Notes: generated by a model not told the origin, from the sequence alone. 64,000 nt of DNA from Candidatus Aenigmatarchaeota archaeon (GCA_043801595.1 JAZDLW010000028.1:1336-65335); one strand, 5' to 3'. Shown: positions 9,108 to 53,105, counted from the stretch's first letter. A program made the numbers and translations.

Positions 9108-9139
9108 TAAGCCTTTTATTAAAAGGCTTAAGCGAAAAC
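9108..9139. repeat. Dispersed palindrome family A copy: TAAGCCTTTT-ATT-AAAAGGCTTA + AGCGAAAAC
   Basis: Perfect 10-bp inverted repeat; similar units at 26913, 32729, 53000 and 44390. Confidence 0.75.
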
Positions 9140-9160
9140 GCATTAACGGAGTGATTGATG

Positions 9161-9574
9161 ATGAAAATTGTAATTTCGGAACCGTCCACAAGAAAGGCTT
9201 ACCAGATTGAGATCGATGCTGCGAAAAGCGCTGCGTTGATAGGCAAAAAAATAAGCGAGGAATTTAACGGCGATCTGGTCGGGTTAAACGGTTATACACT
9301 TAAGATTACGGGAGGGTCTGACAACGGCGGTTTTCCAATGAGACCGGAATTGCCGGGCAGCTCGCGAAGAGCATCCCTGTTAAAAGGCGCGCCCGGATTC
9401 CATCCAAAGTGGAAAGGGCAGCAGAAAAGAAAGCTCGTGTGTAGCAATACGATATCGCAGTCAATTTCGCAGGTAAACGTAAAAGTCATCAAAGCGGGCG
9501 AGAAGAAACTCGAAGAGATCGTTCCGCCTAAGCCAAAAGCTGAAAAGACCGAAGAGAAGAAACCGGCGAAATAA
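9161..9574 (+). CDS. rps6e: 30S ribosomal protein S6e
   Basis: MKIVISEP...LKITGGSDNGGFPMRP...RK.V..N.I...ISQVN; GGAGTGA ribosome-binding site upstream. Confidence 0.97.
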   Translation: MKIVISEPSTRKAYQIEIDAAKSAALIGKKISEEFNGDLVGLNGYTLKITGGSDNGGFPMRPELPGSSRRASLLKGAPGFHPKWKGQQKRKLVCSNTISQSISQVNVKVIKAGEKKLEEIVPPKPKAEKTEEKKPAK

Positions 9575-9601
9575 GCCGGTTGGCGGAGTGAATACTATTA
9601 G

Positions 9602-10867
9602 ATGAAAAGCGAACCAAATGAACTTTTTGGAAAAGTTCAATCAAAAATGATACCCGAAGCAAACATAGGAACAGTCGGGCATGTCGAACACGGGAAAACA
9701 ACACTCTCCGAAGCGTTGAGCGGAAAATGGACAGGCACTCATTCTGAAGAGGTTAAGCGCGGTTTAACGATTAAACTCGGTTATGCGGATGTAACTATTT
9801 ACAAATGCGATAAATGCGAGGGCGTTGAAGCATATTCAACTATGCCGAAATGCCTCAAACATGGGTCTGAGTTGGCCGCGTTGAGGACGATAAGCCTTGT
9901 CGACGCTCCAGGACACGAAATGCTGATGGCGACGGTTCTTGCCGGCGCATCGTTAATGGACGGCGCGCTTTTCGTAATAGCAGCGAACCAAAAATGTCCG
10001 CAGCCGCAGACACGCGAGCATTTAATGGCGCTTAACATAACAGGCGTTGAAAAAATAATCATAGTTCAGAACAAGATCGATTTGGTTGCACCGGAAAAAG
10101 TCAAGGAGAATTATGAACAAATCAAGAGTTTCATAAATGGAACCGTTGCGGAAAATGCGCCGATAATACCGATAAGCGCGAAACAGAGAATAAACATAGA
10201 CGCGCTGCTCGCGACTGTGGAGGAGATAATTCCGACGCCGAAGCGTGATCCAACTAAAGAACCGAAAATGCTTGTTGTGCGCACGTTTGACATTAACAAG
10301 CCTGGTTACACACCCGACAAGCTTTCGGGCGGCGTGCTTGGCGGGTCGCTGATACAGGGCGAGTTCAAAGTCGGCGATGAAATCGAGATACGTCCGGGGA
10401 TAAAAGTTGAACGCGAAAATAAAATTTTCTGGGAACCTTTGTTCTCAAAGATAACGGGGTTGCAGAAAAGGAGCATGCTGATTGACAAGGCTGGCCCGGG
10501 CGGTTTGCTCGGGTTGATGACAGGGCTTGACCCAGCGTTGACGAAGGCTGATTCATTGGCAGGATCGGTTGTCGGATATCCAGGCAAATTACCGCCTGTT
10601 CTTGACAAGTTAAGAATAGAAACCGAATTGATGGAAAGCATTGTCGGGGCGGAAGAGACGCTGAAAGTCGAGAACATACGCACCAATGAACCGTTAATGC
10701 TTACGATCGGAACGAGCCGGACCGTTGGCGTCGTAACGTCGGCGAGAAAGGACGATTTTGAAATAAATTTGAAGCTTCCGGTCTGCGTTAACAAGGGAAA
10801 TCGCGTTGCAATATCGCGACAGGTCGCCACAAGGTGGCGGTTGATAGGGTCGGGCGTGATACGATAA
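9602..10867 (+). CDS. eif2g: Translation initiation factor 2 subunit gamma
   Basis: NIGTVGHVEHGKTT, EEVKRGLTIKLGYA, Zn knuckle, DAPGH, NKID, C-terminal RWRLIG. Confidence 0.97.
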   Translation: MKSEPNELFGKVQSKMIPEANIGTVGHVEHGKTTLSEALSGKWTGTHSEEVKRGLTIKLGYADVTIYKCDKCEGVEAYSTMPKCLKHGSELAALRTISLVDAPGHEMLMATVLAGASLMDGALFVIAANQKCPQPQTREHLMALNITGVEKIIIVQNKIDLVAPEKVKENYEQIKSFINGTVAENAPIIPISAKQRINIDALLATVEEIIPTPKRDPTKEPKMLVVRTFDINKPGYTPDKLSGGVLGGSLIQGEFKVGDEIEIRPGIKVERENKIFWEPLFSKITGLQKRSMLIDKAGPGGLLGLMTGLDPALTKADSLAGSVVGYPGKLPPVLDKLRIETELMESIVGAEETLKVENIRTNEPLMLTIGTSRTVGVVTSARKDDFEINLKLPVCVNKGNRVAISRQVATRWRLIGSGVIR

Positions 10868-10869
10868 GG

Positions 10870-51190: not shown

Positions 51191-51243
51191 AATACCGACC
51201 TGTGGGCTGTCTTTTGCCATTTCAAAGGAGAAATAAAACTTAT

Positions 51244-52725
51244 ATGGCAAAAAAAAGAAGAAAACATAGGTGCTCGGTTTTGAACAGAGGTAACGGATTA
51301 TTTTTGGCGGTTTTTGCTTCCTTGTTATTTGTATCGTCTTTTGCGGCTGCTGTTGGTGTGGATGTGAGTGTTTCTCCGACGCAGGCTGAAGGACTCAGCG
51401 GTTCTGTTACAAGATACGTGATAACCATAAGAAACTTGGAGTCAGTAACAGACAGATTTTTGCTTTCTTATTCGGGAACATATTCTTCCTGGTTAACCAT
51501 TGAGAATAACAATGTTGTTGTTCCTGCGGGCGGTGAGGCGACCGTGACCTTATCAGTCAACCCACCGATTGGAATAAACCCGTCAGTTTACCGTTATGTT
51601 GTAAAGGCCGAGTCTGCAGAGAATCCATCCGTTATCGGTTCTGCGGAATTCTTTTTCACTGTCAATTTCAAATATCCCCTGATAATAACGGATTTCAAAC
51701 TCGATTCGTCAACATACAATCCAGGCTCGGATATCACCGCCTCGATAAAGGTTGCCAATTTGGCTGTGACAGATCTTGAGGGATTTTCACTGGATATAAC
51801 CCTGACAGACCCTTTAAACGGGCAGAAAGGCGTTACTGTACCGATCGGCCTTAAGGGCTTGGAGGAAAAAACCGTCCAGAAAGTGATACAGCTTGACAAG
51901 TACACAATGCCCGGTCAATACAAGGCTTTTGTGGAATTAAAGTCTCAGGCCAATGAACAGGTATCGCAGAATCGGACATCGTTCTCGGTGAACAACTTTT
52001 ATAATGTGCTGCAGGAGAAGCTTGTGCAGAAAACATTTTCCGGAAAGACCGTGATCATAACCGTATCGAATGAAGGAAACATGGTTGCAAAGAATGTGAC
52101 TGTACGCGAGGATCTGTCGAGCCTCGTATCATGGCTCGCTGTACCGGAAACTGCGCCAACGAACACGATTTCCTCGGACGGCGATGTGGCGTATATCTGG
52201 ACCATTGACCAGCTTGCATCAGGGCAGAGCAAAGTCGTTGTTTACAGAATTTCCTACACGCCCGCAATAGTGATAGCAGCATTTCTGATCATAGGCGCGA
52301 TTGTCATCTTTATTCAGATGCAGAAGCCGAGAATATTCAAGCGCGTGCTTCATGTCGGACCTGCGCAGATCGGAAAGGAGTTTACGGTCACGATAGGCAT
52401 AAAGAATTCTTCGAGATACACGCTGAAGTCTGCGATAATTCGCGACTTGGTACCACCGGTACTGCGACTTATACCGCAACATGACACGATGAAACCGCTG
52501 GTTAAGAAGACAGCGGTTGGAACAGAAATGATCTGGAAACTCGGCGATATCAGGCCGCAGGAAGAGAGAATAATAACATACAAACTTTCGCCGGTAATGG
52601 GCATTCTGGGAACCGTTTCTCTTCCGAAGGCTTACCTGCGATACAGAGATGCGAATGAAAACTCGATCAGAATATTCTCCAATTACGGCGAGCTTGGAGA
52701 GGTTGAGAAAAAGGTAGAAGAGTAA
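51244..52725 (+). CDS. Exported multi-Ig-domain (NEW3/CARDB/DUF11-like) surface protein with internal TM
   Basis: Signal peptide; repeated V.N.G...V.V.D motifs; TM PAIVIAAFLIIGAIVIFI, then a further Ig-like domain. Confidence 0.75.
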   Translation: MAKKRRKHRCSVLNRGNGLFLAVFASLLFVSSFAAAVGVDVSVSPTQAEGLSGSVTRYVITIRNLESVTDRFLLSYSGTYSSWLTIENNNVVVPAGGEATVTLSVNPPIGINPSVYRYVVKAESAENPSVIGSAEFFFTVNFKYPLIITDFKLDSSTYNPGSDITASIKVANLAVTDLEGFSLDITLTDPLNGQKGVTVPIGLKGLEEKTVQKVIQLDKYTMPGQYKAFVELKSQANEQVSQNRTSFSVNNFYNVLQEKLVQKTFSGKTVIITVSNEGNMVAKNVTVREDLSSLVSWLAVPETAPTNTISSDGDVAYIWTIDQLASGQSKVVVYRISYTPAIVIAAFLIIGAIVIFIQMQKPRIFKRVLHVGPAQIGKEFTVTIGIKNSSRYTLKSAIIRDLVPPVLRLIPQHDTMKPLVKKTAVGTEMIWKLGDIRPQEERIITYKLSPVMGILGTVSLPKAYLRYRDANENSIRIFSNYGELGEVEKKVEE

Positions 52726-52751
52726 CCTTTTAACAAGTGATTGATGATTGG

Positions 52752-52813
52752 ACAGCACAGCGAAAATCCATCGGATTTTCGCATGCAGGAAACTAAAGTT
52801 TTCTGCATGCTGT
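52752..52813. repeat. Family B double-hairpin palindrome upstream of tRNA-Tyr
   Basis: CGAAAATCC-ATC-GGATTTTCG and GCATGCAGGAAAC-TAAA-GTTTTCTGCATGC, enclosed by ACAGC/GCTGT; resembles 32814-32884. Confidence 0.75.
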
Positions 52814-52893
52814 TTCCCAACGATTTCGGTAAGTTATATAAATTCGACTCTTAAATAAACTTCTTATAACAAAGGTTTGCAAACAATAACTAA

Positions 52894-53105
52894 CCCCCGG
52901 TAGCTCAATTCGGTAGAGTACCCGGCTGTAGTTTGGTACTGCGAAAGCCGTACCAAGATTTGGCCCGTATATCAGAAACCGGGTTGTTGGGCGTTCAAAT
53001 AAGCCTTTTCTTTTGAGAAAGAAAAGCCTTAAGGGAAAAGAAAATTCGGAAAACTTAAGGAAAAATTTAGGATGAGCAAAGGCTTGGAAAATCGCCCCCG
53101 GGGGA
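52894..53105 (+). tRNA. tRNA-Tyr(GTA) with two introns: 37/38 (52932-52977, 46 nt) and T-loop 59/60 (53000-53091, 92 nt)
   Basis: Acceptor CCCCCGG/CCGGGGG; anticodon arm CCCGG-CTGTAG|A-CCGGG; T arm GGGCG-TTCAAA|T-CGCCC completed only after the insert. The second intron is closed by AAGCCTTT/AAAGGCTT with central helix TTCA/GGAA. Confidence 0.88.

Follow-up and report, generated by a model that had tools for sequence, protein, structure and literature searches.

A sense-biased hairpin-and-tail repeat shared by the intergenic spacers and tRNA introns of an aenigmatarchaeal genome

The spacers between genes and the tRNA introns of an Aenigmatarchaeota archaeon share a family of short repeat units, in each of which a T-rich 5′ arm and an A-rich 3′ arm make up a hairpin that leads into an A-rich tail. 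The units were studied from a stretch of 64,000 nucleotides (the window; C24:1336-65335) of an 814-kb genome (G000; Aenigmatarchaeota, DPANN) that is held in 32 contigs, is 86% complete and has as its closest named relatives the 'Candidatus Aenigmatarchaeota archaeon NC_groundwater' metagenome-assembled genomes. An earlier inspection of the window (the sequence-only reading) had claimed that one hairpin family occurs both between genes and in tRNA introns, and this is borne out, most firmly by the tRNA-Ala(CGC) intron and by introns of relatives. Our verdict is that the units are a real, previously undescribed repeat family linked to intron evolution, and we found no published description of the intron-spacer link in the searchable literature. 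On balance, and with some hesitation, we think it probable that they are lineage-specific, high-turnover, miniature non-autonomous repeat modules of Aenigmatarchaeota that spread and seed some tRNA introns. The origin of archaeal tRNA introns is still unexplained and this repeat is a concrete candidate source: one module ties together introns at four kinds of tRNA position, tRNA trailers and a fast-turnover intergenic pool, which gives both a donor pool and testable loci.

The copies claimed at 9108, 26840, 26913, 32729, 44390 and 53000 are all present at their coordinates, and the window holds two more (26886-26914 and 9619-9647). They are given below with the two intron-bearing tRNA genes concerned; bit scores are those of R1, a covariance model derived from spacer units.

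9108-9139, + strand: T AAGCCTTTT att AAAAGGCTT AAGCGAAAAC, a spacer unit lying in the 5′ leader of rpS6e (the gene for ribosomal protein S6e, 9155-9574; Pfam); 30.8 bits
9619-9647, + strand: unit T GAACTTTTT gg AAAAGTTC AATCAAAA within the 5′ end of the aIF2-gamma open reading frame (ORF; 9602-10867); 44.6 bits, the best in the window
26840-26872, + strand: long-stem unit AAACTTTCTT tcc AAGAAAGTTT AATCAAAGAAG (also written AATCAAAG AAG), first of an array of three beside cdc6/orc1; 26.4 bits, the match being placed at 26839
26886-26914, + strand: unit C AAGCTTTT aaa AAAAGCTT GCGCAAAT, second of the array; 37.8 bits
26913-26950, + strand: unit T AAGCTTTT aga AAAAAGGCTT AAGCGAAAAG plus the common extension AGAATGG, third of the array
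32729-32760, + strand: unit T AACCCTTTT tct AAAAGGGTT AATCGAAAAG between the genes for thymidylate kinase and nucleoside diphosphate kinase (NDK); 29.3 bits
44349-44473, + strand: tRNA-Pro(UGG) gene with a 50-nt intron at 37/38
44389-44438, + strand: that intron, C AGCCCTTTTG tgcg CAAAAGCGCTG GCGGAAAAC GCAAGGGCT AGAAAG
52894-53105, + strand: tRNA-Tyr(GUA) gene, exons 52894-52931, 52977-52999 and 53092-53105 (the third exon of 14 nt)
52932-52976, + strand: 37/38 intron of tRNA-Tyr, 45 nt
53000-53091, + strand: T-loop (59/60) intron of tRNA-Tyr, 92 nt
53000-53044, + strand: intron-subtype module T AAGCCTTTTCTTT tgag AAAGAAAAGCCTT AAGGGAAAAGAAAA, whose foot holds a conserved C.C mismatch and whose purine tail is a mirror of the purine arm; 11.9 bits
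53078-53091, + strand: 3′ end of the T-loop intron, in which helix h′ joins AAAGGCTT to 53001-53008, exon U54-A57 has GGAA as its partner and AA lies in the 3′ bulge

From 5′ to 3′ a unit of 27-45 nt consists of a foot x of 4-5 nt (AAAC, AAGC, AAGCC, GAAC, GACC or AACCC), a T-rich tract, a loop of 3-5 nt, the complementary A-rich tract, the foot x′ and a tail, which is x-like (AATC, GATC, AAGC(G), AAGGG), continues as AAAA(G) and often carries the extension GAGAATGG. The tail of the 26913 unit together with GAGAATGG recurs in other copies, and the long-stem unit at 26840-26872 has nine more near-identical copies in the genome. Stems and tails are conserved across units and loops are variable; the outer three stem pairs vary solely by double (compensatory) substitutions, among seeds that were preselected as perfect hairpins.

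A search of the G000 genome for hairpin plus tail gave 69 units as against 0-3 in five shuffled genomes, and 45 of the 69 belong to one family with the T-rich 5′ arm and A-rich 3′ arm. The motif formed by right arm and tail occurs 61 times, 53 of them outside coding calls, and twice in the one shuffle that was searched. The covariance model and genome scan proposed by the sequence-only reading gave about 47 sense-strand matches at E<0.02, with E-values down to 1e-7 in 0.8 Mb. R1 was seeded with 8-bp units and two copies trimmed by one base pair, since MAFFT, applied to all units together (alignment A1), had put the 9-bp stems out of register; the model under-scores the long-stem and intron subtypes, and the 100% pairing of its seeds, picked as perfect hairpins, is thus by construction. 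That the units are chance AT-rich palindromes of no common origin has practically no likelihood left. The sequence is indeed of low complexity, and a short pattern matches three IMG/VR contigs that are unrelated, including a bacterial-type temperate phage, but the enrichments over shuffled genomes refute the idea, and the E-values, the shared tails and GAGAATGG extension and the covariation speak against it as well.

Units lie directly behind stop codons and tRNA 3′ ends, many of them starting at the stop codon or the discriminator base itself, in 5′ leaders, at gene boundaries and occasionally in frame at gene ends, and they form arrays and nest in one another. They are extragenic hairpins whose arrays run head-to-tail (26840-26950), with no inverted doublets seen. 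Relative to transcription 30 are sense and 2 antisense (19:2 in tandem spacers, 6:0 in introns, 5:0 at the edges of coding sequences), the 32729 unit being one of the two antisense copies of the whole genome. In the window 6 of 6 units are on the + strand, on both sides of a probable origin beside cdc6, which is too small a sample to judge replication-strand (lagging-strand) bias as the source of the orientation. The sense bias argues for RNA-level constraint, transcription-coupled insertion or selection.

At least 11 G000 tRNA introns, about half of its total, start with a unit placed 1-3 nt from the 5′ splice site. At 37/38 these are the introns of Pro(UGG), Pro(CGG), Ala(GGC), Ala(CGC), Arg(GCG), Arg(CCU), Arg(UCU), Asp and a further tRNA on C21; elsewhere they are those of the Tyr T-loop (59/60) and the Leu(GAG) variable arm. 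Seven of 45 strict units fall within about 1.7 kb of intron DNA, which makes up about 2.6% of the non-coding DNA, and introns are therefore enriched roughly six-fold. Against the spacer-derived R1 the Ala(CGC) intron scores 35.9 bits (E=5e-5) and the Tyr T-loop copy just 11.9 bits (E=2). The latter, like the Pro(UGG) copy, exemplifies an intron subtype with a longer stem, an AAGGG-type tail and a conserved C.C mismatch in the foot (AAGCC/GCCTT, AGCCC/GCGCT, AACC/CGTT). These two copies are of a diverged subtype, and the intron-spacer link is firmer on other copies.

Bridging cases make that link firm at the level of sequence. The 32729 spacer unit is near-identical to the tRNA-Ala(GGC) intron module of a sister genus (G007), CAACCCTTTT aaa AAAAGGGTTG ATCGAAAAA, and the Ala(GGC) introns of G002 and G006 are complete spacer-type units with the GAGAATGG-like extensions GAGGATGG and TAGAATGG. 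Conversely, the intron-subtype module is found immediately 3′ of a tRNA in G006, within the rpS6e-aIF2-gamma spacer at locus L128, and as a solo copy in G000 (C21:50696) on the stop codon of a membrane-protein ORF. Relatives bear labels such as G001 or G056, and the family comparison covers eight genomes (G000-G007).

Modules are also shared among intron sites. The Ala(GGC) 37/38 site carries differing subtypes by genome, with a tail only in G004 and nothing in G005, and over its first ~50 nt the G003 Arg(GCG) intron equals that of G006 Ala(CGC). Each site has a conserved 3′ adaptor (Pro ...AGAAAG|A; Arg ...GGCAGAYA|C; Leu ...CACATTAGT|C) and the 5′ module switches subtype between genomes, which is the pattern of 'intron transposition' described for Thermoproteales (PMC4090602). 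The same module recurs in the introns of Tyr at 59/60, of Ala, Pro and Arg at 37/38 and of Leu in the variable arm, as is the mark of an intron transposition family. A tail variant, NACC, dominates both spacers and introns of G005 and G002 and is nearly absent in G000; such genome-specific variants common to spacers and introns point to ongoing exchange or common recognition.

The Thermoproteales case is the nearest precedent that we discuss. As far as the accessible accounts of it go (Fujishima 2010 Mol Biol Evol 27:2233, summarised in PMC4090602), the need for a bulge-helix-bulge (BHB) limits the sites and a DNA-level process is suspected, while how intron transposition comes about is called unknown (PMC4090602). 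So far as the accessible texts show, that work compared introns solely with one another (PMC4090602). The units differ from the Thermoproteales introns in being a defined hairpin-tail module that also occurs in spacers, tRNA trailers, 5′ leaders and a reading frame, and in belonging to DPANN with an alpha4-like EndA.

The exons of Tyr, Pro(UGG), Ala, Arg, Leu and Pro(CGG) join into standard tRNAs, and intronless orthologues match the joined exons exactly. Within the window ARAGORN detected no tRNA and Rfam one of three (tRNA-Thr only); tRNA-Tyr and tRNA-Pro(UGG) were established by inspection and by exon matches in relatives; the modules explain why standard tRNA finders overlook about a third of the tRNA genes of G000. 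At Tyr 59/60, manual pairing gives the T-stem GGGCG/CGCCC, a central helix of U54-A57 (UUCA) with GGAA (53086-53089) containing one A.G mismatch, and bulges of 3 nt each (A58 A59 U and A A U60). The upper helix joins AAGCCUUU (53001-53008) to AAAGGCUU (53078-53085); this terminal stem is seen in the minimum-free-energy fold and co-varies among relatives (CTCTTC/GAAGAG in G003, GAGCC/GGCTC in G007). For Pro(UGG) the pairing is UUUG/AGAA, with one G.U and one mismatch, plus AGCCCUU/AAGGGCU. In the subset of introns examined, the Tyr and Pro(UGG) junctions thus appear as relaxed, non-canonical BHBs. The sequence-only reading had proposed that the terminal stem of the repeat completes the BHB and is spliced out; the relaxed BHBs of Tyr and Pro(UGG) uphold this in part, but in most introns, the short ones included, the helix that closes the BHB is not the local hairpin itself, and the T-rich arm has to find its partner in an A-rich segment farther 3′. 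Alternative folds therefore compete.

The mechanism that we propose is as follows. Modules would gather in transcribed, dispensable DNA, nearly always sense: behind stops and tRNA 3′ ends, in 5′ leaders, at gene ends and in tRNA genes. Within a tRNA gene the module would supply the 5′ portion of a BHB-type intron. The T-rich arm, running from intron nucleotide 2, would make the upper helix of a relaxed BHB with an A-rich 3′ segment, and a short site-specific 3′ adaptor would pair with the exon. Copies could survive in essential single-copy tRNAs because an alpha4-like EndA would excise the whole insert. Spread at the DNA level would be by copy-and-paste, by repair or gene conversion via short A-rich homologies, or by some enzyme, and some tRNA introns would have arisen or been re-seeded by such copies. 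The genome has a single EndA gene (C13:31962-32567; PF01974, 201 aa), most similar to the alpha4 EndA of M. jannaschii (E=4e-32), and relative to that enzyme the protein has a 6-residue insert (given as KRGPKEA) between the catalytic Tyr and His, which may be related to broad splice-site use. DPANN alpha4 EndAs with an 'L3' insert go with heavily disrupted tRNA genes (Kaneta et al., PMC5829648); the G000 insert is not equated with L3.

Comparison with relatives shows how readily the units come and go. The congener G005, compared in full with G000, has 71% nucleotide identity to it across the DNA that aligns, and the two share 473 reciprocal best hits with 66% amino-acid identity. In ten syntenic spacers where G000 holds units, G005 has none and its spacer is shorter. 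Elsewhere G005 carries about 14 units itself, and there is one clean reciprocal case. In the array spacer G005 keeps the conserved block up to ...TTCCGATA and has zero units, and its counterpart of the 32729 spacer is 61 nt long and unit-free. At rpS6e the 9108 unit sits between the conserved leader GATCTTAGAGGTGTTTG and the start codon, and in a relative (L127) the leader is joined straight to CAAAATG as an empty site. In aIF2-gamma the 9619 unit inserts 21 nt in frame and so adds LFGKVQS; four relatives read MKTDLNEKLIPEAN or MEAVDEKLIPEAN there, lacking the 21 nt. The 12-nt spacer between the two genes is empty in G000, and relatives carry AAACTTTTT-type units or the intron-subtype module in it. 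Across 61 genomes of the class, copy number ranges from 0 to 41 and is patchy, with 34 genomes at zero: G014 has 41, G056 has 34 (other sampled genomes of its family have 0), G000 26, G001 15, G006 13, G004 10, G005 9, G002 4 and G003 3. Near-consensus copies persist in distant families of the class. The sequence-only reading had described the element as MITE- or REP-like (a miniature inverted-repeat transposable element or a repetitive extragenic palindrome). Its behaviour as a proliferating repeat stands, given the presence/absence polymorphism, the in-frame copy, arrays, nesting and patchy counts; the likeness is not supported by the lack of an HUH gene in the genome, by the want of any evident target duplication or by the 30:2 sense bias.

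These comparisons also bear on whether the modules are host-selected structural signals in 3′ ends, trailers or leaders, acting in stability, processing or termination, which introns keep for splice-site presentation. Some host factor would then recognise the hairpin or triplex-like fold, and new copies would be retained for their usefulness. The sense bias suits such signals, as do the many units that begin at a stop codon or a tRNA discriminator base, the tails that end 1-4 nt before some tRNA 5′ ends, the conservation of stems, tails and mirrored purine tract beside variable loops, and the near-consensus copies in distant families. However, the orthologous spacers of congeners are unit-free and shorter, so no site requires a unit; 34 of 61 related genomes do without any, and the triple tandem array, nested copies and in-frame aIF2-gamma copy are hard to explain as signals. 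We regard this explanation as unlikely.

A gene-boundary cassette is a further alternative, in which T-run and hairpin act as a terminator, the right arm and tail AAAAGTTTAATCAAAA act as a promoter of the TFB-recognition-element (BRE)/TATA kind and the introns mark nascent split tRNAs. The right arm and tail AAAAGTTTAATCAAAA resemble what we take to be the archaeal BRE/TATA consensus. Units do stand at gene boundaries, and in introns the distance from tail to 3′ exon is 23-30 nt, but the upstream position of a TATA-like box and conserved leader puts the rpS6e unit inside the 5′ untranslated region, tails 1-4 nt from tRNA 5′ ends are too near for a TATA box, units occur in convergent spacers, arrays and a reading frame, and a terminator within the single-copy tRNA-Tyr, ahead of its third exon, is implausible. 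As a whole we judge the cassette very improbable. Its promoter part is rejected, as tails abut tRNA 5′ ends, the rpS6e unit is downstream of the leader and units are absent from orthologous spacers. A terminator-only reading is unlikely, since the T4-T5 runs stand in essential single-copy tRNA genes and are followed by A-runs and not T-runs.

The reading of spreading, intron-seeding modules rests on this turnover and on the intron-spacer link, and several points weigh against it. The first concerns intron history. The Tyr T-loop intron is in all eight family genomes (orthologues of 52-156 nt), and the T-loop is intact in class-level relatives. G000, G001, G003, G004, G006 and G007 have the Pro(UGG) intron, with clearer modules in the orthologues of the last five; it is precisely missing in G002 and G005, as is the Arg(GCG) intron. 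Empty alleles of tRNA-Pro(UGG), which the sequence-only reading had suggested seeking in relatives, thus exist, but in the RpoA′ tree G007 lies outside the genus and G002 and G005 are joined with 99% support, and the two introns' absences there would most simply be losses. The Tyr and Pro(UGG) introns cited in the sequence-only reading are accordingly old and not fresh gains, the one family-wide and the other shared with a sister genus and lost in G002 and G005. Ala(CGC) has its 37/38 intron in G000, G001, G004 and G006 and lacks it in G002, G003, G005 and G007; the Leu variable-arm intron is present in G000, G003 and G004 and absent from G006; and G006 and G004 have extra D-loop and T-loop introns. 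No intron gain can be dated unambiguously, because the other branches of the genus tree are poorly resolved. Further, the spacer model misses the intron subtype (E=2), so the intron and spacer pools are related yet partly distinct. The sense bias and stop-codon position also fit a selected RNA-level function, and variable loops with conserved stems and tails fit purifying selection as well as recent copying.

The remaining points concern a mobilising enzyme. A Y1/HUH gene (PF01797; IS200-like or REP-associated tyrosine transposase, RAYT) is absent from the unit-rich genomes G000, G001, G014 and G056, TnpB is absent from G000 (itself 86% complete), reverse transcriptase is absent from G000, G001, G005 and G056, and there are no clear terminal inverted repeats (TIRs) beyond the hairpin itself. 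PF01797 is found in genomes with 0-1 units, and none of the three tracks copy number. RAYT/IS200, TnpB and reverse transcriptase are therefore rejected as mobilisers on their absence from G000 and want of correlation with copy number, and the HUH/Y1 transposase flanked by the same hairpins that had been suggested is not in G000. Target duplications, likewise suggested, are not seen in filled and empty rpS6e and aIF2-gamma sites, save an imperfect AATGAA/AATCAA at aIF2-gamma.

A viral vector is rejected too: exact long patterns have 0 matches in IMG/VR and the short pattern has 4 (3 distinct). These matches (L206-L209) are single perfect spacer-type units of 41-46 bits on three distinct viral contigs, and one region, with an integrase, an ERF recombinase and Bro-N, has the look of a bacterial-type temperate phage. 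They are probably chance or unrelated.

Transfer could also have run in reverse and through RNA, with a BHB intron at the root whose excised (circular) RNA was reinserted by cleavage and ligation of the EndA/RtcB type and then fixed in DNA. This would account for the sense bias and confinement to transcribed DNA, for units that always begin at intron nucleotide 1-3, for a solo intron-type copy placed after GGGTTCAAAT, a T-loop look-alike at an ORF end, whose G005 orthologue has no copy, and for intron-type modules in a tRNA trailer and a spacer of relatives. The missing reverse transcriptase counts against it, however, as does the fact that the majority of spacer units belong to subtypes of which G000 has no whole introns. 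Spacer units also lack flanking BHB complementarity on a manual check of 9108 and typical array junctions, and on the same grounds the idea that they are themselves spliceable mini-introns was rejected. We consider the RNA route quite improbable.

Intron-subtype modules and long-stem spacer units alike carry, after the tail, a purine tract that is the reverse (mirror) of the purine arm. The mirror match holds in all informative modules (10/10, 12/12 and so on; 12/12 at L128), an example being Tyr of G003 (TCTTCTTTTT / AAAAAGAAGA / AGAAGAAAAA). Longest matches sum to 142 for the mirror and 116 for the direct orientation, as against 110.7 +/- 4.7 in shuffled pairings, of which 0 of 5000 reach the observed value, a test inflated by the common descent of the sequences. 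A Watson-Crick partner would call for a direct copy and a purine-motif triplex for a mirror copy, and a triplex is therefore a reasonable inference. A homopurine mirror repeat stands beside a complementary homopyrimidine strand and all three tracts co-vary, which suggests a triplex-like fold of DNA or RNA as the thing recognised or selected, and predicts a specific, biophysically testable structure. We raise, as a tentative and somewhat unlikely extension, that the units are a self-propagating triplex-forming element, selected as three strands, that homes to A/T-rich sites left exposed, such as tRNA ends, stop codons and the T-loop sequence TTCAAAT of tRNAs, and seeds the non-canonical BHB introns of DPANN. 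If true, this would be a new, transposase-independent class of mobile element and a long-sought arrival route for archaeal tRNA introns.

Among known systems, H-DNA-type purine mirror repeats and RNA elements for nuclear expression (ENE) share with the units a pyrimidine strand, a purine strand and a co-varying mirror purine strand. However, known RNA triplexes consist mostly of U.A-U, a U-rich clamp enclosing an A tail, whereas the triplex of the units is inferred from sequence, and no known triplex element is a dispersed repeat or intron module. REP elements, in bacterial interspersed mosaic elements (BIMEs) or REPIN-RAYT systems, share extragenic hairpins of ~30 nt, arrays, compensatory stem changes, lineage-specific counts and orientation relative to transcription; the units differ in having no Y1/HUH gene, direct arrays in place of inverted pairs, a mirrored A-rich tail, intronic copies and an archaeal host. 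MITEs (e.g. the SM-type non-autonomous elements of Sulfolobus) are likewise small non-coding repeats of variable presence among relatives, yet the units have no TIR-flanked body, target-site duplication or parental insertion sequence, are far smaller and show a strong sense bias.

Several further features lie near the units. Between a DUF3179 gene and the convergent cdc6/orc1 lies a non-coding block of ~240 nt (26596-26838) that G005 shares as conserved sequence (from C3:23155) and at which cumulative GC skew turns; the three-unit array begins exactly where this conservation stops. An Rfam search of the block gave no family matches, and it could be a replication origin or an RNA gene of a new type. 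Right after the 32729 unit, 32775-32900 holds a run of two-hairpin elements (AACGGAAAGCcgaaGCTTTC, AACGGAAACC..GGTTTCCGT, GCACAGGAAAAT..), none of which is in the G005 orthologue of that spacer (61 nt). A two-hairpin family (CAYRGGAAA... and ACGRAAAC...) is also nested between unit foot and T-run in four introns, those of tRNA-Asp, Arg(UCU), Lys and one further (C30:22003-22176, C19:6366-6533, C21:~17800-18000, C30:21680-21943), so that repeats have been inserted into repeats inside introns. In G004 aIF2-gamma has an in-frame insertion of ~500 aa (L130) just before the GTP-binding region, absent from G000 and other relatives, which looks like an intein or homing endonuclease.

Other observations concern tRNA genes. 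The tRNA-Thr of the window (43259-43363) has a 35-nt 37/38 intron without a module, and an ORF (42653-43327) extends into the gene. Besides its unit-led 37/38 intron, the tRNA-Arg(CCU) gene (C23:168060-168200) carries a T-loop intron of 30 nt, GAACC...GGTTC TGAA AC, with a perfect central helix UUCA/UGAA; with Tyr, T-loop introns therefore occur in at least two G000 tRNAs. Finally, a third hairpin family (GACACGCATCC..GGATGCGTGTC and similar) lies 8-30 nt upstream of many tRNA genes, e.g. at C23:126273-126310 and C13:620-663.

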